Of a stretch of DNA of 64,000 nt, positions 10,861 to 48,413 are shown in pieces. The stretch's first letter is position 1. Each line of letters starts with the position of its first letter. This stretch comes from Cenarchaeum sp. (GTDB lineage Archaea > Thermoproteota > Nitrososphaeria > Nitrososphaerales > Nitrosopumilaceae), in assembly GCA_965206845.1 (NCBI GenBank), contig OZ242221.1:960001-1024000 (forward strand), in the 5' to 3' direction. The notes below the pieces were generated by a model that ran no database searches, had not been told where the DNA came from, and saw only the letters and a program-made list of their open reading frames with translations. The position numbers and the translations under genes are program-made.

Positions 10861-11626
10861 GGTCTACTTTGTGGGGTGCGGGCCGGGAGACCCGGAGCTG
10901 ATCACCGTAAAGGCAAAGAGGCTGATCCAGCAGGCAGACACGGTGGTGTACTCGGGCTCGCTGGTTCCAGAGCCGATAATGGAGTTCTGCCGTGGCGCAG
11001 ATCTGCACGATGCGTCGGGCCTAGTACGCGAGGAGATATTTGACATACTGCGCGGCAGCGCAAAGAAGGGCAAGCTCGTGGTGCGCCTGCACGACGGCGA
11101 CCCTACGATATACGGCGCCATAAGGGAGCAGATGGACGGCCTCGCAGGCGAGGGCATCGAGTCGGTGATAGTCCCCGGGGTTACGTCGTTTCTTGCATCT
11201 GCTGGCGCCCTAGGGGCCCAGCTCACGCTGCCGGGCGTGACCCAGACCATAATCATCACCCGCGCCGAGAAGCGCACCCGGGTGCCCGAGCGTGAAAGGA
11301 TCTCCGAGCTGGCAAGGCACCAGGCAACCATGGTCTTCTACCTCAGCGTTCACCTCCTCAATGACATTGTGCGGGATGTGATCGGCGGCGGATACACCGA
11401 GTCGACGCCGGCGGCGGTGGTCTACAGGGCCAGCTGGGAAGACCAGAAGGTCATCGTGGGCACCCTGGCGGACATTGCAAAAAAGACGAGGGCGCACAAG
11501 ATTACAAAGACTGCCATCGTGATCATAGGCCAGGTCATCAACCCAGAGTCGTACGAGTACTCCAGGCTCTATGACAAGTCGTTTGGCCACGGCTACCGGA
11601 AGGCAAGACCCGTCACAGAGCGATAG
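10853..11626 (+). CDS. cbiF: Cobalt-precorrin-4 C11-methyltransferase
   Basis: GCGPGDPELIT, RLHDGDPTIYGAIREQM, TQTIIITR, SRLYD. Confidence 0.93.
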   Translation: MPKVYFVGCGPGDPELITVKAKRLIQQADTVVYSGSLVPEPIMEFCRGADLHDASGLVREEIFDILRGSAKKGKLVVRLHDGDPTIYGAIREQMDGLAGEGIESVIVPGVTSFLASAGALGAQLTLPGVTQTIIITRAEKRTRVPERERISELARHQATMVFYLSVHLLNDIVRDVIGGGYTESTPAAVVYRASWEDQKVIVGTLADIAKKTRAHKITKTAIVIIGQVINPESYEYSRLYDKSFGHGYRKARPVTER

Positions 11627-12377
11627 GGTCGGCGCGGCAGTCCATTCCCAGCGCCGCCAGCTTGCGCGAGAACGCCCCTGCGTCCCCGGACGCAAAGATC
11701 CTAAGCGGGCCCTGCGTCGGGGCGCTCCCGACTCTGGCACCGGCCTGCCGGGCCACATCGTCGGCCGGATCAAGAAACCTCACATCGGGAAACTCTGCCT
11801 CCATCATCCCCCTTAGGAACGGCAGGTGGGTGCTTGACAGCGTGGCCGTGTCGATGCCGCCCTGCCCAAGGCGGTCGGCCAGAACCCGCGAGATCTCCCT
11901 CCGGCAGCGCGGCGCATCCAGCACAAAACCGCCCGACTCCACCAGCCGGATCAGGGGGCTGCAGTTGACGGGCAGGACGGAGATCCCCTCCGGCAGGCGG
12001 CACCCCTCTATGTACCGGCGCAGCTCCGGGCCTGCGGCGACTGATTCGGTTGTGAGGACCGCAACGTTGCCGGTCCCGGTCATACCGGCCGCCCGGCTCA
12101 GTGGCGGATGCACCCCCAGCGTCCTGTCATCAAGGATCTCCGGAAGCAGCAGGGACGGCGTGTTGGAGCCCACTATTACAAGATCCGGCTTGAAGAGTCT
12201 CCGCAGGCCCGCTATGGTTCCCGTGATGATCCGCCCAAGCTCCGCACGGGTCTTGGTTCCGTATGGAAAGCTGTCGGTATCCGCATAGTATATGATCTCC
12301 GAGCGGAGCGTCCGTCGAAGGGGCCCGATAACGGACAGGGAGCCAAGTCCCGAATCAAAGATCGCTATTCTGGGCAT
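11613..12377 (-). CDS. murI: Glutamate racemase-family protein (catalytic Cys replaced by Ser)
   Basis: IAIFDSGLG, FPYGTK, GSNTPS, LSSTHLP; real start MPRIAIF at 12377. Confidence 0.82.
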   Translation of the reverse strand: MPRIAIFDSGLGSLSVIGPLRRTLRSEIIYYADTDSFPYGTKTRAELGRIITGTIAGLRRLFKPDLVIVGSNTPSLLLPEILDDRTLGVHPPLSRAAGMTGTGNVAVLTTESVAAGPELRRYIEGCRLPEGISVLPVNCSPLIRLVESGGFVLDAPRCRREISRVLADRLGQGGIDTATLSSTHLPFLRGMMEAEFPDVRFLDPADDVARQAGARVGSAPTQGPLRIFASGDAGAFSRKLAALGMDCRADPIAL

Positions 12378-12385
12378 AATCACAA

Positions 12386-14566
12386 GGGAATTATATACAT
12401 TAGTGTACAGCACCCATGCCTTTTTCTGGCGCTCTTGCATTGCCTCCCACGCTTGGCTCTCGCGTGCTGTTTGCGGAACGCGCGGGAGCAATCCCGCGCC
12501 GGCTTCTCGCGCCTTCAGACGACCATCCCGGCCGCCCTGCCGTCGCTTTCACGGCAATATTATACGCGGCATTTACGTCCGCGTTGACGTCATTGTCACA
12601 GTTGTAATTGGTGCACCGGAACCTGTCCTGCGATATGCGGGATTCCTTGTCACTGTGGCCGCACCTGTGGCATGTTATGCTGGTGCCCTTGGGGTCCACC
12701 ATTACCACGATCACGCCGGCATTGGCGCACGCGCCCTTGATCAATCGTTGGAACGTGCCGGGCCTTGAGTAGGCCATCTCCCTGTTTAGTCCCGTCTTGG
12801 CGGAGCTTCCCCTTCCCTTGGCGCCCGCGGTCATGTTCACGAGGTTGAGATCCTCCATGGCCACCGTTCCGGCGCCGTCCGCTATCCTCTTGGAGGCGTG
12901 TCGCTCCCAGTTCGTCTGGCGGTTGGCAATCTTTTCCCTCTTTTTCCGGATCTTCCTGTGCAGCTCCTTGTAGCTTCTTGACTTGGTCTTCCTCGGCTTG
13001 TCCCTGTTGCGGCCGCTCGTGTTGTTGCTGCAGCCGCTGCCGCCAGTGCCGTTCCCACCGTCCGCGCTCTTGCTCCCGCCGTCGGAACCTTCCTTGGAAT
13101 CCTGTTTGGTGCGCCTGTTGCCGCGCCCCCCGCGCTTCTGAGAGAGCTCCGAGTACATCTTCGATATGTCGTCGTCCTTTGCCCTCCTGCAGTCATTTGG
13201 GAGGTCGTGGAACTTGTGGCTGCCGGTGCCAAGGTCGACGGTGGCGACGCCGTGGACTATGCCCATGTCGATGCCCCTTATGACCGCGGACTCGGACGGC
13301 TCCGGCGCCTTTATCCTGATCTGGATGTGGAGCCGGTACGTCCTGTTGTGATTCTTAGTGCGCTTCGTGGTCCTCTTGGTCGTCTCGACGAGCTGGAAGG
13401 AGCGCATGTCAAGGTCCTTAACGTCGCCGTGCACCCTCACCATGCCTATGCCGGGAAGGTGCAGCATGCCGTTGCCCTTGTAGACGGGCTTCTCAAAGAC
13501 CGAGAGTGACTTCGCTTCCCCCTTCATGCTGAACAGGGAATCCCTGTGGGTCCATTTGTTCCTCTTGTTGCTCCACTTGTTTGAGGGTAAATTTACAGCG
13601 GTGTCGATGTCCTTGACGCCCTCCTTTTCCCGGTCCCGCCTGGCCAGGTACTTCCACAATGACTTGTTGCGGCGCTTTTTGCCGTTTGATATTACGAACT
13701 TTTGAACGGCGTCCAGGCCCAGCAGGAGCCCCGCCCTCTGCACCATGCAGCTGCAGGCCTCCTTGCGTCCAGCGGCCAGCGCCTCCTTGTCATGGACCAG
13801 CCACCCGTTTGCGTCCCTCCATTTGGTGAGCATCTTGTTGAGGTCGAACTTGGTTGTCCTCGGGTCGTTGAGCTTCTCCCTGACGGCCATGTTGAACGCC
13901 CACCTCTGCGGGTCCATGTGGCGCGATATGAGATCCGACAGCTCCGCCGACTGGTCAAAGTCCACCTTTATGTTGCGTATCATGGCGCCATCCATTAGGC
14001 GCCTTGACCACTTTTTTGGCGCCGGCTCGGTTGCGGCTGCCGTTGCATCCGCCTGCTCCGTTGCCACTGCTGCCGCCTCCGCCATGATGGGTTTCATTAC
14101 GCATTCAATATGCCATGCGCATAAAAACACCGCGACAACACTATCATTAGTGTGCAGACCATGCTGACCGTCCGCACTGTCATATCCATCGTTTCCGCCG
14201 CGCCTGTCCGCGCGGTTCCGGCCGCCACGGTGCGGCGCCGGCACCCGCTGGAACGGCCATCATGGCGGAAGGCCCGAAAAGGACGGGTTTTGGCCGCTTT
14301 TGAATGCAGTTCCCGCCTTGCAATGCCGGACCGGTCCGGGACGGCGCCTTAAATACGGATCCGGCATTTGCCCGCGTGAAAGGCGCGACCAGACCGCCGC
14401 CTTCCTGGGCTTTTGCCTGCCTCGGGATGCCTGCCGGCGCCGGAAAACCCGGGACAGCCATCGGCCAGTCATGAACCGGGAAGACCGGTCTGCGGACCGC
14501 ATTATCGGCCTGGACGGGAGGCCCCGGACATGCGGCGGCGGCTGTTCACTTAACTATATAATTCCC
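12386..14566 (-). mobile_element. TnpB-only element with TIRs and 8-bp TSD (copy 1, 2181 bp)
   Basis: Ends GGGAATTATATAcattAGTGtACAGC / GGGAATTATATAgttaAGTGaACAGC (inverted); AATCACAA directly repeated at 12378-12385 and 14567-14574. Confidence 0.92.
12400..14097 (-). CDS. tnpB: TnpB-like RNA-guided endonuclease, ~565 aa
   Basis: RuvC-I GIDMG, RuvC-II MEDLNL, TSITCHRC..FRC..C zinc finger, RuvC-III NADVNAAYNI; start MKPIM aligned with copy 2, TATA-like TTTTTATG ~25 bp upstream. Confidence 0.92.
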   Translation of the reverse strand: MKPIMAEAAAVATEQADATAAATEPAPKKWSRRLMDGAMIRNIKVDFDQSAELSDLISRHMDPQRWAFNMAVREKLNDPRTTKFDLNKMLTKWRDANGWLVHDKEALAAGRKEACSCMVQRAGLLLGLDAVQKFVISNGKKRRNKSLWKYLARRDREKEGVKDIDTAVNLPSNKWSNKRNKWTHRDSLFSMKGEAKSLSVFEKPVYKGNGMLHLPGIGMVRVHGDVKDLDMRSFQLVETTKRTTKRTKNHNRTYRLHIQIRIKAPEPSESAVIRGIDMGIVHGVATVDLGTGSHKFHDLPNDCRRAKDDDISKMYSELSQKRGGRGNRRTKQDSKEGSDGGSKSADGGNGTGGSGCSNNTSGRNRDKPRKTKSRSYKELHRKIRKKREKIANRQTNWERHASKRIADGAGTVAMEDLNLVNMTAGAKGRGSSAKTGLNREMAYSRPGTFQRLIKGACANAGVIVVMVDPKGTSITCHRCGHSDKESRISQDRFRCTNYNCDNDVNADVNAAYNIAVKATAGRPGWSSEGARSRRGIAPARSANSTREPSVGGNARAPEKGMGAVH

Positions 14567-14661
14567 AATCACAACACATTCTGGTTTTGTTAGCTAAATT
14601 TAGTCTAGGGTTGATCTAAATATACCCCTCTCATTAAGAGTGCAATACTAGACTGCCAATT

Positions 14662-15309
14662 ATGCCAAGCTTTGATAAGAACTGGGCCCGGCAGGACGCT
14701 CCAAGCGTGACTGAGAAACTACGTGGCGCAGTTACAGCCGAAGGCGCACTCAAGCCCAGGATTCAGGGAGCTGTAAACAAACTTCAGGTTCAGATATCCA
14801 AGATGGATTCGATGCTGGGAAAGCTGCGGGAGAGAGACTCGAGGCTGTTTCAGAGAATCGTCGTTGCCATGCAGCAGCACGACACCGGCGCAAGCAGGGT
14901 GCTCTCAAACGAACTGGCCGAGATCCGCAAGGTTTCAAGAATGCTAGGCAACGCAAGGATGTCGCTGGAGCAGGTTCAACTGCGATTGACGACCATTCAC
15001 GACCTAGGTGATGCCATGGTCGCGATAGGACCCGCGATGTCCACCATGAAGGGACTGAAGGCGTCTGTTGGCAAGTTCATGCCAGAGGCCGACTCGGAGC
15101 TTCAGGACATGACGCAGACCCTCAACGGCCTGATGTCAGACTCGCTGTCCGGAGAGGCGTTCAGCGGCATCGGATCAGAGGTCTCCACAGAAGAGACGGA
15201 CAAGATCCTGCAGGAAGCATCAGCCGTTGTAGAGCAGAAGATCGGGGACAAGTTTCCATCTGTTCCCTTCCACGGGCTTTCGTCAGAGGTTTCTACCAGT
15301 CTTGAGTAG
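14662..15309 (+). CDS. ESCRT-III / CdvB-family (Snf7) protein
   Basis: Coiled-coil, NELAEIRKV, LEQVQLRL.TI..LGD, ETDKILQEAS. Confidence 0.88.
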   Translation: MPSFDKNWARQDAPSVTEKLRGAVTAEGALKPRIQGAVNKLQVQISKMDSMLGKLRERDSRLFQRIVVAMQQHDTGASRVLSNELAEIRKVSRMLGNARMSLEQVQLRLTTIHDLGDAMVAIGPAMSTMKGLKASVGKFMPEADSELQDMTQTLNGLMSDSLSGEAFSGIGSEVSTEETDKILQEASAVVEQKIGDKFPSVPFHGLSSEVSTSLE

Positions 15310-16524: not shown

Positions 16525-16547
16525 GGGAATTATATATTTAAGTTCAC
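16525..16547. repeat. Orphan copy of the GGGAATTATATA element end
   Basis: gggaattatatatttaagttcac resembles copy-1 end gggaattatatagttaagtgaac; no partner end found. Confidence 0.5.
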
Positions 16548-17241
16548 AAAACGGGTGAACTGCGTGGCGACCGTTCGGGTTACCCACTCCATAGCAGGCA
16601 TCAGCCTGAGGCACGAATTCTGGCATATGCGGCGGATCGCACAAGTGTGAAATCCTACTTATGCAGTAACTGGCGAGTCCCGTGATAATCTCTGGCCAGT
16701 CGGGGGCACGGCATAGAGGCAGGACACAAGGTGATCGAGAAATCAAGAGCGGAGGCATCTAACAAGATGTCAAATCAGGTACGTTCTGCTTTCTGTATTT
16801 ATTGCGGATGTTCAACCTATGGGTACCGGATGGTGCAACCCGGCATGGCGTGTAGACCGGGGATGGAAGACTTGTCGTAACGTAGGACGGCCTCGTGGAA
16901 GATAATTCTGGGCGTGATGTGTGGCAGCCGGCCGGAACCGTCACCCCAATACAGGCAGCCGGGGAGCGCATTTGCGCTAACCTGATGCACAACGCACTGA
17001 CAAACTCTTCGTGAAACACAGGTAGCCGAATGGCCACCTCCCCGTCTCGCATGTGCCGCAGATCTCGTCCCTCTGCAACGATCGCATCCCTCCTGACGGA
17101 GAACCAGATCTTCCCCGGGATGCCCAACCCGGTAAGGGCTGACTGCGGGTATTGCCAGTGCGGCAGAGTATGCGCGTGGTCCTGCGCCCCCCGGCCGGCG
17201 GCAGGAAACTTTTATTGTCCTGCGGAATCTCCCGTATCTAG

Positions 17242-27175: not shown

Positions 27176-27959
27176 ACTCTGCGGAGCCGATGCCGCGAAA
27201 CGACGAGCCCAGCATCGGGTTTATCAGGTACGGCAGGGTCTGCTTGAGCCATACCACGCCGCGAACCGTCGACGGCACGACTATCTCCAGGCGCGAGGAC
27301 GCGGATGCCTTGACTATCGCCCGGGCGACCCTCTTGGAGCTTATCGCGTAGGGCTTGCGCCGCATCTTTCCAAACGAGGAATGGTCAAAAAAGTTTGTCC
27401 GTACCGTGATCGGGCTCACAACCGTGACACCAACGCCGGTCTCGTGGAGCTCGTGCTTGAGCCCCTCAGAGAAGCCAAGCATCGCAAACTTTGAGGCGCA
27501 GTACGGCGCCATGCCGGGCAGCCCGACGCTTGCCGCAACGGATGCGACGTTTACTATGTGGCCACGGTTCCGCTTGATCATACCGGGAAGAAAGCCCTTC
27601 GTGCAGTAGACCATGCCAAAGTAGTTCGTCCTCATCTGACCCTCGATCTCCCCGACGCTCAGCTGGGAGACAGTGCCGTACACGGCATAGCCTGCATTGT
27701 TTACCAGAACGTCGACCTGGCCGAACCTGTCCAGGACCTGCCGCGCCATCTCCGAGACCTGGCCGCTGTCAGACACGTCGCATGTCATGGCCTCGGTCTT
27801 GCCGATCCCTGCAAGCTCTTCTCGCGCCCGCTCGAGCCTGTCTGCATTCCGGGATACCATGACCACGCGGGCTCCCCTGTCTGCAAACTCAAAGGCCGCT
27901 GCCGCGCCTATTCCGCTGGACGCGCCCGTGATTACCACTATCTTGTCCCTAAGATTCAC
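27138..27959 (-). CDS. Short-chain dehydrogenase/reductase
   Basis: TGASSGIG, LVNNAG, YCASK. Confidence 0.93.
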   Translation of the reverse strand: MNLRDKIVVITGASSGIGAAAAFEFADRGARVVMVSRNADRLERAREELAGIGKTEAMTCDVSDSGQVSEMARQVLDRFGQVDVLVNNAGYAVYGTVSQLSVGEIEGQMRTNYFGMVYCTKGFLPGMIKRNRGHIVNVASVAASVGLPGMAPYCASKFAMLGFSEGLKHELHETGVGVTVVSPITVRTNFFDHSSFGKMRRKPYAISSKRVARAIVKASASSRLEIVVPSTVRGVVWLKQTLPYLINPMLGSSFRGIGSAESSPSPAPEEPRP

Positions 27960-28980
27960 TGTGTTTACTGGTGCCGGTCTTGGTATATTTGCCTAGTGCG
28001 AAGCGGAAGAGCATGACCCAGGTGACGACAATCGGGAGGTAGTATGTGGCGATCCGCCAGGCGATCACCGCGTTCCACTCCAGCGCCTCTTCTAGCACGT
28101 CAAAGTTGAAGGGATCCAGGTTGTTGATGTACGCCACTATGCCAAACTCGGTCAGGCCGGATCCGCCCACGGTGATGGGCAGGTTCCCGATGGCGTTGGC
28201 CCCCATCACCGCCATGATCGAGTCAAACGGCTCGATGGATATGCCGATCCCCGATGCGATTATCATAAACGAGATGCCGTAGAAGAACCAGGATGCCAGG
28301 GACAGCATGAATGCGTTTACAAACAGCTTCTTGGACTTGGCCGTTCCCATGTTCTCCCTGGATATGGTGCACACCTCGTCCATCCAGTGGTTGGTCTGGG
28401 TGACATATCTCTGGCCGCGCTCCTTCGCAAATCTTGCGACGAGCCGCGCAATGCCCCCGGGAACTTGGAAGGTGCGCTTTGATGACATGAAGAAGAGTAG
28501 CACCCACATGGACGTAACCGCTATGCTGGTTGCAAGTATTATGGTGGCCACTATGTACGCCCCGCTGGCGAGCGCGACGATCCCCGCAATCATGGAGAGC
28601 ACGCCCCCGGCCAGCACCTCGGTCACTATGTCAAGTATGGCAACCCACACGGCCTTGGGCGGCGGGACGCCCTTCTTGTGCAGCCAGTATATCACGACAA
28701 ACTCGGCCCCTATGAACATGGGGGTCGTGAACTTGATGAACTCGCTTCCAATCCTGATGCCGGCTATCCTCCAGATCGAGTCTATGCGGCCCACCTGGTG
28801 TCTTATTATGTAGGAGAGCTTGATGCCCTGCAGGCCCAGCTTTGCCATCATCGCCAGCGCCGCCAGGGCAAAGGGAACCGCCCCCACCGCCAGCACGTCC
28901 TCCAGGCGCACGTCAAACCGGATGATGATTACTACGATTGGGATCATGCTGGCCAGAATGGCCACGGGCCTCCAGTTCAC
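27949..28980 (-). CDS. UPF0104 / lysylphosphatidylglycerol-synthase-TM flippase-like protein
   Basis: Multi-TM, TTP.FIGAE, LPITVGGSGLTEFG, WRIATYYLP. Confidence 0.85.
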   Translation of the reverse strand: MNWRPVAILASMIPIVVIIIRFDVRLEDVLAVGAVPFALAALAMMAKLGLQGIKLSYIIRHQVGRIDSIWRIAGIRIGSEFIKFTTPMFIGAEFVVIYWLHKKGVPPPKAVWVAILDIVTEVLAGGVLSMIAGIVALASGAYIVATIILATSIAVTSMWVLLFFMSSKRTFQVPGGIARLVARFAKERGQRYVTQTNHWMDEVCTISRENMGTAKSKKLFVNAFMLSLASWFFYGISFMIIASGIGISIEPFDSIMAVMGANAIGNLPITVGGSGLTEFGIVAYINNLDPFNFDVLEEALEWNAVIAWRIATYYLPIVVTWVMLFRFALGKYTKTGTSKHSES

Positions 28981-32344: not shown

Positions 32345-32389
32345 CACTGTTCCCACAGCGATTCCACTAATATTTGAAGCTAAAGGGAA

Positions 32390-34042
32390 TTATATACAAA
32401 AGTACACAGTACCTTTGCCTTTTGCTGGCGCTCTTGCAATCCCCCCCACGCTTGGCTCTCGCGTGTTGTCTGGGGAACGCCCGGGAGCAATCCCGCGCTG
32501 GTGTCTCGCGTCTTTGGACGACCTTCCCGGCCGCCCTGCCGCCTTGGCTGTTGCCTTGGAGGCAATGTTATACGCGGCATTGATGTCCGCGTTGACGTCA
32601 TTCTCACATCTGTCATTGGTGCACCGGAACTCACCCCGCGACACCCTGGATTCCTTGTCGGTGCGGCCGCACCTGTGGCATGTGATGCTGGTGCCCTTGG
32701 GGTCCACCATTACCACGATCACGCCGGCATTGGCGCACGCGCCCTTGATCAATCGTTGGAACGTCCCGGGCCTTGAGTAGGCCATCTCCCTGTTTAGCCC
32801 CGTCTTGGCGGAGCTTCCCTTGCCCTTGGACTTGGCTGTCATGTTGTTGAGGCTGAGGTCCTCCATGGCCACCGTTCCCGCGCCGTCCGCTATCCTCTTG
32901 GACGCGTGCCTTTCCCAGTTGGTCTGGCGGTTGGCAATCTTTTCCCTCTTTTTCCGGATCTTCCTGTGCAGCTCCTTGTAGCTTCTTGACTTGGTCTTCC
33001 TCGGCTTGTCCCTGTTGCGGCCGCTCGTGTTGTTCCCGCCGTTAGTGGTTTTGCTTCCACTGTCAGCATCTTCCTTACTGTCCTGTTTGGTGCGCCTGTT
33101 GCCGCGCCCCCCTCGCTTCCTTGAGATCTCGGAATACATCTTGGATATGTCGTCGTTCTTCGCCCTCCTGCAGTCCTTTGGGAGGTCGTGGAACCTGTGG
33201 CGGCCGGTATCGAGGTCCGCCGTGGCGGCGCCGTGCACTATGCCCATGTCCACGCCCCTGACGACCGTGGATTCGGACGGCTCCGGGGCCTTGGTTTCAA
33301 CCTGGATGTGGAGCCTGTACGTCCTGTGGCGGTCTTTGGTGCGTTTCGTGGTCTTCTTCGTCGTCTCGACGAGCTGGAAGGAGAGCATGTCAAGATCCTC
33401 CACATCGCCGTGCACCCTTACGGTGCCTATGCCGGGGAGCATCACCGTGTTGTCGCCCTTGTAGACGGGCTTCTCGAAGACCGAGAGGGACCGCTGCTCC
33501 CCCTTCCTCTTGAACAGGGAATCCCTGTGGCGCCACTTGTTCCTCTTGTTGCTCCACTTGTTCGACGGCAAATTTACAGCAGTGTCAATATCCGGTATCC
33601 CCTCCTTTTCCCGGTCGAGCCTAGCCAGGTACTTCCATAATGACTTGTTGCGGCGCTTTTTGCCGTTTGATATTACGAACTTTTGAACGGCATCCAGGCC
33701 CAGCAGGAGCCCCGCCCTCTGCGCAAGGAAGCCGCCCTCTATCCATTCCTTCCCATGTCTCCATCCGGTGAGCATCTTGTTGAGGTCAAACTTGGTTGTC
33801 CTCGGGTCGTCCAGCTTCTCCCGCACCGCCATGTTGAACGCCCACCGCTGCTGGTCCATTCGGCAGGATATGAGATCCGACAGCTCCGCCGACTGGTCAA
33901 AGTCCACCTTTATGTTGCGTATCATGATGCCCTCCATTGGGCGCCTTGACCACTTTTTTGGAGCCGGCTCGGTTGCGGCTGCGGTTGCGTCCGCCTGCTC
34001 CGTTGCTGTTGCTGCTACTACCTCTGCCATGACGGATTTCAT
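32390..34042 (-). CDS. tnpB: TnpB-like RNA-guided endonuclease, 550 aa
   Basis: GVDMG, MEDL, TSITCHRC..FRC..C, NADINAAYNI; stop codon lies inside the TIR. Confidence 0.93.
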   Translation of the reverse strand: MKSVMAEVVAATATEQADATAAATEPAPKKWSRRPMEGIMIRNIKVDFDQSAELSDLISCRMDQQRWAFNMAVREKLDDPRTTKFDLNKMLTGWRHGKEWIEGGFLAQRAGLLLGLDAVQKFVISNGKKRRNKSLWKYLARLDREKEGIPDIDTAVNLPSNKWSNKRNKWRHRDSLFKRKGEQRSLSVFEKPVYKGDNTVMLPGIGTVRVHGDVEDLDMLSFQLVETTKKTTKRTKDRHRTYRLHIQVETKAPEPSESTVVRGVDMGIVHGAATADLDTGRHRFHDLPKDCRRAKNDDISKMYSEISRKRGGRGNRRTKQDSKEDADSGSKTTNGGNNTSGRNRDKPRKTKSRSYKELHRKIRKKREKIANRQTNWERHASKRIADGAGTVAMEDLSLNNMTAKSKGKGSSAKTGLNREMAYSRPGTFQRLIKGACANAGVIVVMVDPKGTSITCHRCGRTDKESRVSRGEFRCTNDRCENDVNADINAAYNIASKATAKAAGRPGRSSKDARHQRGIAPGRSPDNTREPSVGGIARAPAKGKGTVYFCI

Positions 34043-34064
34043 TACGCATTCAATATGTCATACG

Positions 34065-34072
34065 TATAAAAA
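34065..34072 (-). promoter_or_regulatory. TATA box of tnpB (leaderless transcript)
   Basis: TTTTTATA 23-30 bp upstream of ATG; equivalent motif at the same spacing in copies 1 and 3. Confidence 0.65.
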
Positions 34073-34292
34073 CACCGCGACAACACCATGCAGACCATGC
34101 AAACAGTCCGCACCGCCGCGACCATTATTTCCGCCGCGCTTGCCTGTGCTGTTCCTCCAGCCACTGGCGCCGCGCCGGCATCTGGCAGGAATGGCGCGCC
34201 GGAAGGAAAGCCGGAAAATGATGAAAGCATTGTGTACTTTTGTATATAATTCCCAAGCTAAACGGTCGCAGCCGCGGATGCCCGGCCGGGCT

Positions 34293-47994: not shown

Positions 47995-48017
47995 CCCACC
48001 ATACGCCAACTAAAATA

Positions 48018-48273
48018 GGGAATTATATACTTCGGTAGGCATAACCGGGGAATTACATACAAAAGTAACCAAAATTCCTGCCTTTTTGGCGCTCCCTTTC
48101 GCGCGCCGTCCTTGTTAGATGCCGGCGCGTCATCCGTGGCGGCCGTAATCGCACGGACAAGCATAACGGGATGGATGGCCATGACAGTGCGGACTGTCCG
48201 CATGGTCTGCATGGTATTGTCGCGGCGCTTTTATGCGATGTGAAATATTGCATGTGGTAATGAAATCAATCAT
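48018..48273 (+). mobile_element. Truncated 5' end of the TnpB/TIR element (copy 3)
   Basis: GGGAATTATATAC at 48018 and GGGAATTACATACAAAAGTA at 48048, leader homologous to copies 1/2, ATG AAA TCA ATC ATG (MKSIM) at 48260, then cut by the 140-bp MITE. Confidence 0.88.
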
Positions 48274-48413
48274 GAGATGTGATTCGTAATTAGCACGCAG
48301 GCATATTAGAGCACGATCTTTGGCATAATCATACGAAAGTTGCATGCTTTGGAGCACACATCTGTAAGATTATGGGCATCGAAGGCCCGATTCTTAATTG
48401 CGGATCATGTCTC
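48274..48413 (+). mobile_element. 140-bp MITE, copy B
   Basis: Near-identical to copy A. Confidence 0.9.

Follow-up and report, generated by a model that had tools for sequence, protein, structure and literature searches.

A tnpB element with IS1595-type ends beside the murI start codon of a sponge-associated Cenarchaeum: putative omegaRNA scaffold and a one-sided TAM-like motif

We analyzed a 64,000-nucleotide stretch of DNA (the window) from Cenarchaeum sp., a sponge-associated archaeon. The window corresponds to bases 960001-1024000 of a single-contig genome of 1.65 Mb with 57% GC (labelled G000). Immediately upstream of the start codon of a murI-like gene it contains an element with terminal inverted repeats (TIRs) and a target site duplication (TSD), with tnpB as its sole gene. 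We consider it probable that this element is a non-autonomous insertion sequence (IS) of the IS1595 type that carries tnpB and an omegaRNA as cargo and is moved in trans; it may be retained with the help of a target-adjacent motif (TAM) and may provide murI with read-through transcription. The IS1595 family of the ends, the putative omegaRNA scaffold and an orientation-specific G beside the TSD go beyond an earlier note on this region (the original prediction).

The element occupies positions 12386-14566 (2181 bp). It is bounded by imperfect 26-nt TIRs, complementary at 22 of 26 positions (85%), which form the longest inverted repeat of the region. The right end, on the 3' side of tnpB, is located at 12386-12411 and the left end, on the 5' side, at 14541-14566. 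Both ends are flanked by the TSD AATCACAA, at 12378-12385 on the murI (right-end) side and at 14567-14574 on the cdvB (left-end) side, with a perfect 8/8 match found by direct reading as well as by script. The original prediction of an element with an imperfect 26-bp TIR and a TSD at 12378-14574 is thereby confirmed. The terminal 12-mer GGGAATTATATA occurs eight times in the window with at most one mismatch, against 0.06 expected occurrences, and none of 100 shuffled sequences reached eight. The tnpB coding sequence (565 amino acids (aa) plus stop) is located at 12400-14097 on the minus strand and its stop codon falls within the right TIR. On this strand, the order is tnpB, right TIR, 8-bp TSD and murI ATG. 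Read as the reverse complement, 12375-12377 form the murI start codon (MPRIAIFDSG...), and the TSD begins at the adjoining base; direct sequence reading and the open reading frame thus bear out the earlier statement that the TSD starts beside the murI ATG (12377).

Upstream of tnpB lies a non-coding region (14098-14540, minus strand), the length of which differs among the copies of the element (tnpB starts 196-928 nt from the left end). It contains a TATA-like box, TTTTTATG, at 14120-14127 on the minus strand, the centre of which is about 26 nt away from the tnpB ATG, and the block with this box is conserved upstream of the tnpB start in other copies. Since a distance of about 26 nt from the ATG equals the archaeal promoter spacing for leaderless mRNAs, TTTTTATG is presumably the promoter of a leaderless tnpB mRNA. 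At 14575, the base that immediately precedes the left-end TSD on the tnpB strand is a TAM-like G (C on the plus strand).

The ends point to the IS1595 family. In G170, a genome from another genus of the same family as G000, the identical terminal 12-mer and perfect 8-bp TSDs bound an IS1595 transposase alone (L113, 2046 bp), a transposase together with a methyltransferase-HNH gene (L112, L111), the methyltransferase gene only (L114) or tnpB only (L115). The G170 transposases match Pfam DDE_Tnp_IS1595 with E-values between 1e-34 and 1e-38, and the shared 12-mer extends to at least 13 nt at L111, L112, L113 and L116, all with a PF12762 transposase. Across G135, G170, G132 and G018, which belong to one genus (g18), the 12-mer is found in 4-28 copies (0-1 for a reversed-pattern control) together with IS1595 transposase genes (2-13 matches), while G001 has neither the 12-mer nor an IS1595 transposase gene. 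Because the same TIR bounds IS1595 transposase elements in a related genus, we read the murI-side element as a transposase-less IS1595-type shell with a TnpB cargo. The usual target duplication of IS1595 elements is 8 bp. In common with IS1595-family elements (NF033547, PF12762/PF12760) that encode a transposase, the element has this terminal sequence and an 8-bp TSD, and passenger genes in such a shell are also seen with the methyltransferase-HNH gene of G170. Unlike this family, it contains TnpB and a structured RNA as cargo and no transposase. A DDE_Tnp_IS1595 transposase is encoded in none of the 15 copies in the genome, and the element is therefore filed as a non-autonomous IS1595 derivative and not as IS1595 proper.

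Elsewhere, G000 encodes a single, intact IS1595-family transposase of 313 aa (genome positions 27527-28465; PF12762, E = 1e-34; NF033547, 160 bits against a cut-off of 75), which is 58% identical to its G170 counterpart over the full length. The terminus on the 5' (upstream) side of this gene agrees with the TIR of the tnpB elements in 18 of 23 bases when both are aligned from the tip. Most likely, the element is moved in trans by an IS1595-family transposase. We also observed that the methyltransferase cargo of L111, L112 and L114 is a fusion of N6/N4 DNA methyltransferase and HNH nuclease, present with or without a transposase, and that an IS630-type (DDE_3) gene is nested in one methyltransferase-HNH copy of G170. 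A TATA-like TTATATA is part of the TIR and the transposase ATG of L113 is situated about 35 nt inside the tip, so that the TIR may also function as a promoter from which a leaderless transposase mRNA is made.

By sequence criteria the encoded protein is classified as a TnpB, an RNA-guided endonuclease of the OMEGA class. It matches NCBIfam guided_TnpB (NF040570) over residues 157-515 with 106.9 bits (cut-off 100) and Pfam Cas12f1-like_TNB with 58.3 bits (cut-off 26.3; E = 8e-16). The stretch comprising RuvC-II, the zinc ribbon and RuvC-III aligns with solved Cas12f and TnpB chains (profile E-value 5e-13). The E of the MEDL motif, the D of NADxNAA and the CxxC...CxxxxC between them are aligned to these solved chains and are invariant in the 12 intact copies of the genome and in 14 of 14 database homologues. 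The D of xDMG, a motif that we take to be RuvC-I, is equally invariant and lies outside the coverage of the structural alignments. Scores for two other NCBIfam models remain below their cut-offs (IS200_TnpB, 41 bits against 425; IS607_TnpB, 47 bits against 350). With its length, the protein exceeds typical TnpBs by about 150 aa. An AlphaFold2 model based on a 14-sequence alignment was unusable (mean pLDDT 37, pTM 0.20). A search of genome contigs with the single TnpB protein returned no loci, whereas the TnpB alignment as a query returned ten, one of them close (L122, 67%). Close homologues (E <= 1e-60) were found in none of the 400 other family genomes searched.

The genome contains 15 diverged, TIR-bounded copies, each at a separate site, with TIR lengths of 24-40 nt. 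The idea that tnpB and its TIRs have moved as a unit at least twice was thus an understatement, as at least 15 TIR-bounded copies occupy different sites. The two flanking TSDs match at 8/8 positions in ten copies, at 7/8 in two, and at 6/8, 5/8 and 1/8 in one copy each. The second full copy of the window lies on the minus strand at 32377-34262 including its TSDs (element 32385-34254) and has a perfect 24-nt TIR, the TSD AAGCTAAA and a tnpB of 550 aa. tnpB is open over its full length in 12 of the 15 copies (542-589 aa). Among the three broken copies, two are frameshifted and one lacks the 5' half of the gene owing to a nested IS5-like element. All 12 intact copies retain the D of xDMG, the E of MEDL, the D of NADxNAA and the zinc ribbon, and their indels are in frame; this extends what had been noted for the two window copies (565 and 550 aa), namely open reading frames, a preserved catalytic triad and in-frame indels.

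We calculated the ratio of nonsynonymous to synonymous substitutions (dN/dS) with the NG86 (Nei-Gojobori) method for all 66 pairs of the 12 intact tnpB copies, pairs that are not independent of each other. The median dN/dS is 0.285 (range 0.22-0.37) at a median dS of 0.66, and the two window copies give 0.31 (dN 0.103, dS 0.337). As no pair of copies has a dN/dS near 1, purifying selection acts on the nuclease gene. The claim of purifying selection in the original prediction has thus passed the check over all copies that was proposed along with it.

Two further observations concern the copies. The full copy at genome positions 1075256-1077418 has an intact tnpB and is flanked by unrelated 8-mers (the 1/8 match given above), which suggests recombination between copies or a rearrangement. 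A DDE gene within copy e870 was considered as the missing transposase and rejected, as it belongs to an unrelated, nested IS5-like IS of 1210 bp. This IS is present at genome positions 870717-871926 and at six other sites, and has its own TIR (GGGGTTGGTGCG...) and 9-bp TSDs. Its seven copies share 93.7-100% aa identity, and the one nested in a tnpB element has no TSD and replaces the 5' half of tnpB.

The 3' end of the element appears to encode a structured RNA. The last 240 nt of all 15 copies were aligned and folded with RNAalifold, which resulted in eight helices with 50 pairs, 11 of which show compensatory double changes. The proportion of paired cells is 97.3%, compared to 35-49% when the partners are slid by one to three columns. 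Double-change cells amount to 44, versus 15.7 +/- 2.9 in shuffled alignments, and none of 500 shuffles was as high. On the minus strand, the structure occupies 12397-12583, where it overlaps the tnpB 3' end and extends into the TIR, and it stops 11 nt short of the element tip. Over the last 62 columns of the protein alignment dN/dS is about 1.0 and dS is 0.21, versus 0.66 for the whole gene. A dN/dS around 1 combined with a low dS indicates that the constraint in this tail is on the nucleotides and not on the protein. In IS605-type elements, the omegaRNA scaffold of TnpB sits at this position. We therefore regard the last ~200 nt, from the end of tnpB to the TIR, as a covarying RNA and putative omegaRNA scaffold; Rfam contains no family that matches it at E <= 1. 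Judged from substitution patterns, both the nuclease and its RNA are evidently kept functional by selection. A separate, 369-bp element resembling a miniature inverted-repeat transposable element was observed at genome positions 1178387-1178755. It consists of the omegaRNA-scaffold region between two right-end-type TIRs and could be a satellite that provides only the RNA and relies on TnpB in trans.

When the copies are oriented by tnpB, the base directly 5' of the left-end TSD (position -1) is a G in all 15 copies of G000, and the first base of the TSD (+1) is T in 12 copies and C in three. With G making up 28.6% of the genome, the chance of finding 15 of 15 is about 7e-9 (0.286^15). TnpBs of the IS605 type read their TAM at this position, 5' of the sequence adjoining the right end. 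As the 8-bp TSD is variable, the TSD itself cannot be a fixed TAM, and the constant part consists of the base before the TSD and the first TSD base. The right TIR ends with ...CCC, so that the occupied junction is without the G. From its position, the one-sided G/Y motif resembles a TAM, and it is a new observation of this analysis.

We propose the following explanation. A staggered cut by a DDE-type transposase acting on IS1595-type ends would give rise to the 8-bp duplication, with tnpB and a 3' omegaRNA scaffold taking the place of the transposase gene, and an IS1595-family transposase encoded elsewhere in the genome would move the element in trans. By analogy to the IS605 TnpBs, the omegaRNA would read through the right TIR and take its guide from the DNA next to the element, which at this locus is the TSD and then the start of murI. 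Where a short TAM (G, then T or C) is located directly 5' of the duplication, the complex would cleave its own insertion site in the unoccupied state. Only insertions with the correctly oriented motif would then be protected from loss, and this limited protection would explain why the motif is found in all 15 surviving copies. The part of this proposal in which the guide equals the flank, cleavage of the restored empty site needs the G and G-less insertions are lost over time is the simplest reading of the motif; it is tentative, and we lean slightly towards doubt here. More doubtful is the extended version, in which a minimal TAM of a single G and a pyrimidine acts as a retention or homing device of a DDE transposon with otherwise random targets and murI depends on read-through. 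If true, it would represent a prokaryotic counterpart of Fanzor in DDE transposons; the start region of murI would then serve as the guide, and the reliance of murI on read-through would tie a host gene to the element.

Alternatively, the G/Y beside the duplication might reflect a target preference of transposition or an effect of composition, with the nuclease as a mere passenger. The transposase clearly has some target preference, since the TSDs are AT-rich in a genome with 57% GC, and outside G000 a G is found at -1 in only six of ten tnpB elements. We nevertheless consider this explanation unlikely, because the preference is one-sided: the mirror position has a G in five of the 15 copies, versus 15 of 15 at -1 (one-sided Fisher's exact test, ~1e-4). 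The bias is also retained in copies with TIRs that are identical over at least 24 nt (e992, e411), where an asymmetry of the ends cannot orient it, and seven elements with the same TIR and no tnpB have a G at only two of their 14 edges. A further insertion, on contig L122, has its inferred empty site in G000 (8-mer at window position 16878), which is again preceded by a G.

The history of the locus bears on whether the element has been mobile in recent times. The murI-like Asp/Glu racemase gene (254 aa; 11613-12377, minus strand) is located on the tnpB strand, directly downstream of tnpB. It matches TIGR00067 (E = 3e-18; 66 bits, under the cut-off of 146.65) and Pfam Asp_Glu_race (20.1 bits, under the cut-off of 31). 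Among the 30 relatives searched for murI, 18 encode it as a full-length homologue. The divergent neighbour of murI before the insertion is a cdvB1/B2-like ESCRT-III gene (14662-15309, plus strand; NCBIfam CdvB1/B2, E = 1.5e-44, below the cut-off). Both genes are divergent neighbours in all 18 relatives with murI, with about 85-190 bp between their starts, and the G000 spacer would be 95 bp without the element and one TSD copy. A conserved TAAATTTAG box is found at most 60 nt upstream of murI in 13 of these 18 relatives. In G000 the element separates this box from murI, as the box lies towards cdvB, 20 nt past the TSD, which means that the element landed between the box and the murI ATG. The conserved synteny and the displaced box hence support the earlier claim that the insertion parts murI from its native upstream region by 2.2 kb. 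The conserved box of the spacer is palindromic, CTAAATTTAG(CTAACAAA), at 14591-14610; its exact core is present in 13 of the 18 relatives (loci L032-L047) and in G000, and it probably serves both divergent genes as a promoter or regulatory element.

The original prediction had suggested an empty-site comparison in relatives: the short murI-cdvB spacer is present in 18 of 18, and an empty site at the nucleotide level was not found there, since even the murI of the nearest genome has only 55% aa identity. Searching metagenome contigs with murI yielded two matches at 32% identity and no more empty sites. RNA evidence is available as assembled contigs from four sponge metatranscriptome runs, each with parts of the stretch. 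DNA runs X10-X14 also contain it, at 0.9 of its words. One contig of run X3 (depth 5.3, two other letters in 177) matches 12202-12378 and continues with a loose end, TCACAACACATTCC. This loose end completes a single TSD, except for one missing A, and then matches seven of the first eight bases of the cdvB-side flank. We take the contig as weak evidence that a ~99%-identical population variant has an allele in which the site is empty. Contig L122, which is 98.7% identical in the flank, has a full tnpB element with its right end abutting window position 16878, where G000 is without it. In the window, a solo left-end-type TIR (GGGAATTATATATTTAAGTTCAC...) without a partner occurs at 16525-16877. 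The insertion at murI is derived and probably polymorphic.

These data can be set against the explanation that the copies are immobile relics, with a tnpB that was conserved formerly or has been co-opted by the host, and with no transposition or homing at present. In its favour, no paralogues are closer than a dS of about 0.3, three of the 15 copies are broken, the only IS1595 transposase locus is one-ended and none of the 400 other family genomes has a close TnpB homologue (E <= 1e-60). We judge it to be quite improbable, as ten of 15 TSDs are perfect despite a dS of about 0.66 among copies, which fits single-copy lineages that move by cut-and-paste. The putative empty-site allele in the population variant, the strain with a copy at a site that is vacant in G000 and the intact catalytic residues also argue against it, and the RNA scaffold and TIRs are constrained at the nucleotide level in the manner of a mobile unit rather than a domesticated gene. 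That TnpB, with its RNase H-fold RuvC nuclease, itself makes the staggered cuts and moves the element without a transposase would agree with the lack of a transposase gene within any copy and with the additional ~150 aa of the protein, yet it is highly improbable given that the same TIR and 8-bp TSD flank elements with an IS1595 transposase and no tnpB, that TIR and transposase co-occur in five genomes and are both missing in G001, and that tnpB is described as dispensable for transposition in published work (PMC13565253).

Contigs from the RNA libraries cover tnpB and murI in all four runs. A contig of run X2 (704 nt, 11767-12470) runs from murI across the TSD and the TIR and includes 85 nt of the element. 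In X3, the interval 12470-12582 is matched exactly by a contig with a depth of 70, versus 3-8 for the other X3 contigs, and the bin 12432-12535 reaches a depth of 207, which is only a hint as contig depths do not rank regions. The region 13992-14700 is without an RNA-library contig in the four runs, a gap that is not interpretable. Another X3 contig (depth 5.7) lacks two bases at window position 12597, inside the 3' region of tnpB, and may represent a frameshifted tnpB variant or an assembly error. Together, these contigs give a hint that murI is co-transcribed with the 3' part of the element and that the scaffold RNA accumulates. Because the element lies between the TAAATTTAG box and the ATG, murI is probably now transcribed as a read-through of the tnpB/omegaRNA transcript on the same strand, for which the support is weak. 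The TATA-like part of the TIR was considered as a murI promoter and rejected, since it lies 13-20 nt from the ATG when read outward, too close for a transcript that contains the ATG.

Several points weigh against our explanation as a whole. No transposase gene is present inside any of the 15 copies, the terminus of the G000 transposase locus is related and not identical to the TIR (five mismatches in 23), and a second end of this locus was looked for and not found. Near-identical paralogues are absent, the closest pair with the murI-side copy having a dS of 0.34. The case for recent activity consists of the intact TSDs and one low-depth contig, and this single empty-site contig (depth 5.3) has a loose end of only 14 nt in which one A of the TSD is missing. 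Metatranscriptome libraries may contain DNA, and their contigs give no strand, no ends and no reliable ranking by depth. In the tnpB elements outside G000, position -1 is G in six of ten, A in three and T in one; for this count the truncated L077, which has no TSD, was dropped along with L056, the TSD of which is out of register, and L070 was counted as G with an imperfect TSD register. The TnpBs of these elements are only 27-48% identical to that of the murI-side copy, and the G rule may be lineage-specific or weaker than it looks. Finally, a TAM of one or two bases would be unusually short for a TnpB.

TnpB is normally tied to IS200/IS605 and IS607 elements, in which a fixed insertion motif doubles as the TAM and excision is scarless. 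IS200/IS605, ISC and IS607 elements are described as having no TIRs and no TSDs (PMC4810608, PMC3119063, PMC13565253), and the presence of both places the murI-side element outside these families. Its 26-nt TIR, its 8-bp TSD and the lack of tnpA in any copy likewise speak against membership in IS200/IS605 or IS607, which have a Y1 or serine TnpA as their partner. With the IS1341-type elements, as presented in PMC3119063 and PMC4810608, it shares tnpB as the sole gene, many diverged copies per genome that show little close similarity to one another and an omegaRNA overlapping the 3' end. According to the same sources, IS1341-type elements have no TIRs or TSDs, contain subterminal hairpins and are inserted on the 3' side of a fixed motif of 4-5 nt, in contrast to the 24-40-nt TIRs and 8-bp TSDs found here.

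DDE transposons with TnpB are known as a kind. Altae-Tran et al. (2023; PMC10691335) reported six DDE-transposase-associated TnpB branches (DDE-1 to DDE-6) with inverted terminal repeats, as well as solo TnpBs between the same ends that are presumed to be mobilised in trans. The murI-side element has in common with them that tnpB is located between inverted terminal repeats. In their account, the tnpB 3' end is at most 250 bp away from a transposon end; in the murI-side element, the TIR includes the stop codon. The partner family differs, being IS1595 in our case. The term 'IS1595' is absent from the main text of PMC10691335, the supplements of which may name it, and a review from 2026 gives ISL2, IS630 and IS1031 as DDE partners of TnpB (PMC13565253). 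Judged by title and abstract, none of nine publications that name both IS1595 and TnpB treats an association of the two. A single insertion such as the one at murI is ordinary, TnpB in DDE transposons has already been published as a kind, and the family with an IS1595 shell is a variant of it.

Fanzor1 was reportedly found in eukaryotic DDE transposons by Bao and Jurka in 2013. As outlined for Fanzor1 in PMC13565253, the element combines a TnpB-type nuclease with a cut-and-paste transposon that has TIRs and TSDs, with the scaffold at the transposon end, and by analogy its target would be in the flanking DNA beside the TSD. Unlike Fanzor1, it resides in an archaeal host and has a TSD that is 8 bp long and variable. 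An IS1595-type shell inserts at variable sites and duplicates 8 bp, which makes TAM recognition and homing without a fixed target an open question, and the same question is raised in the 2026 review (PMC13565253). The one-sided G in 15 of 15 copies offers a concrete and testable answer, and hints at a very short TAM that would be of interest to genome editing. For the host, the insertion is a clean and ordinary case in which a gene has been cut off from its conserved promoter box by an IS that probably supplies it with read-through transcription.

We found a further remnant in the window at 48018-48274, beside a tRNA gene that ends near 47995. It consists of two nested element ends, specifically a 30-nt left-end fragment followed by a left end with a long TIR, the tnpB promoter and the first codons, truncated after about 230 bp.

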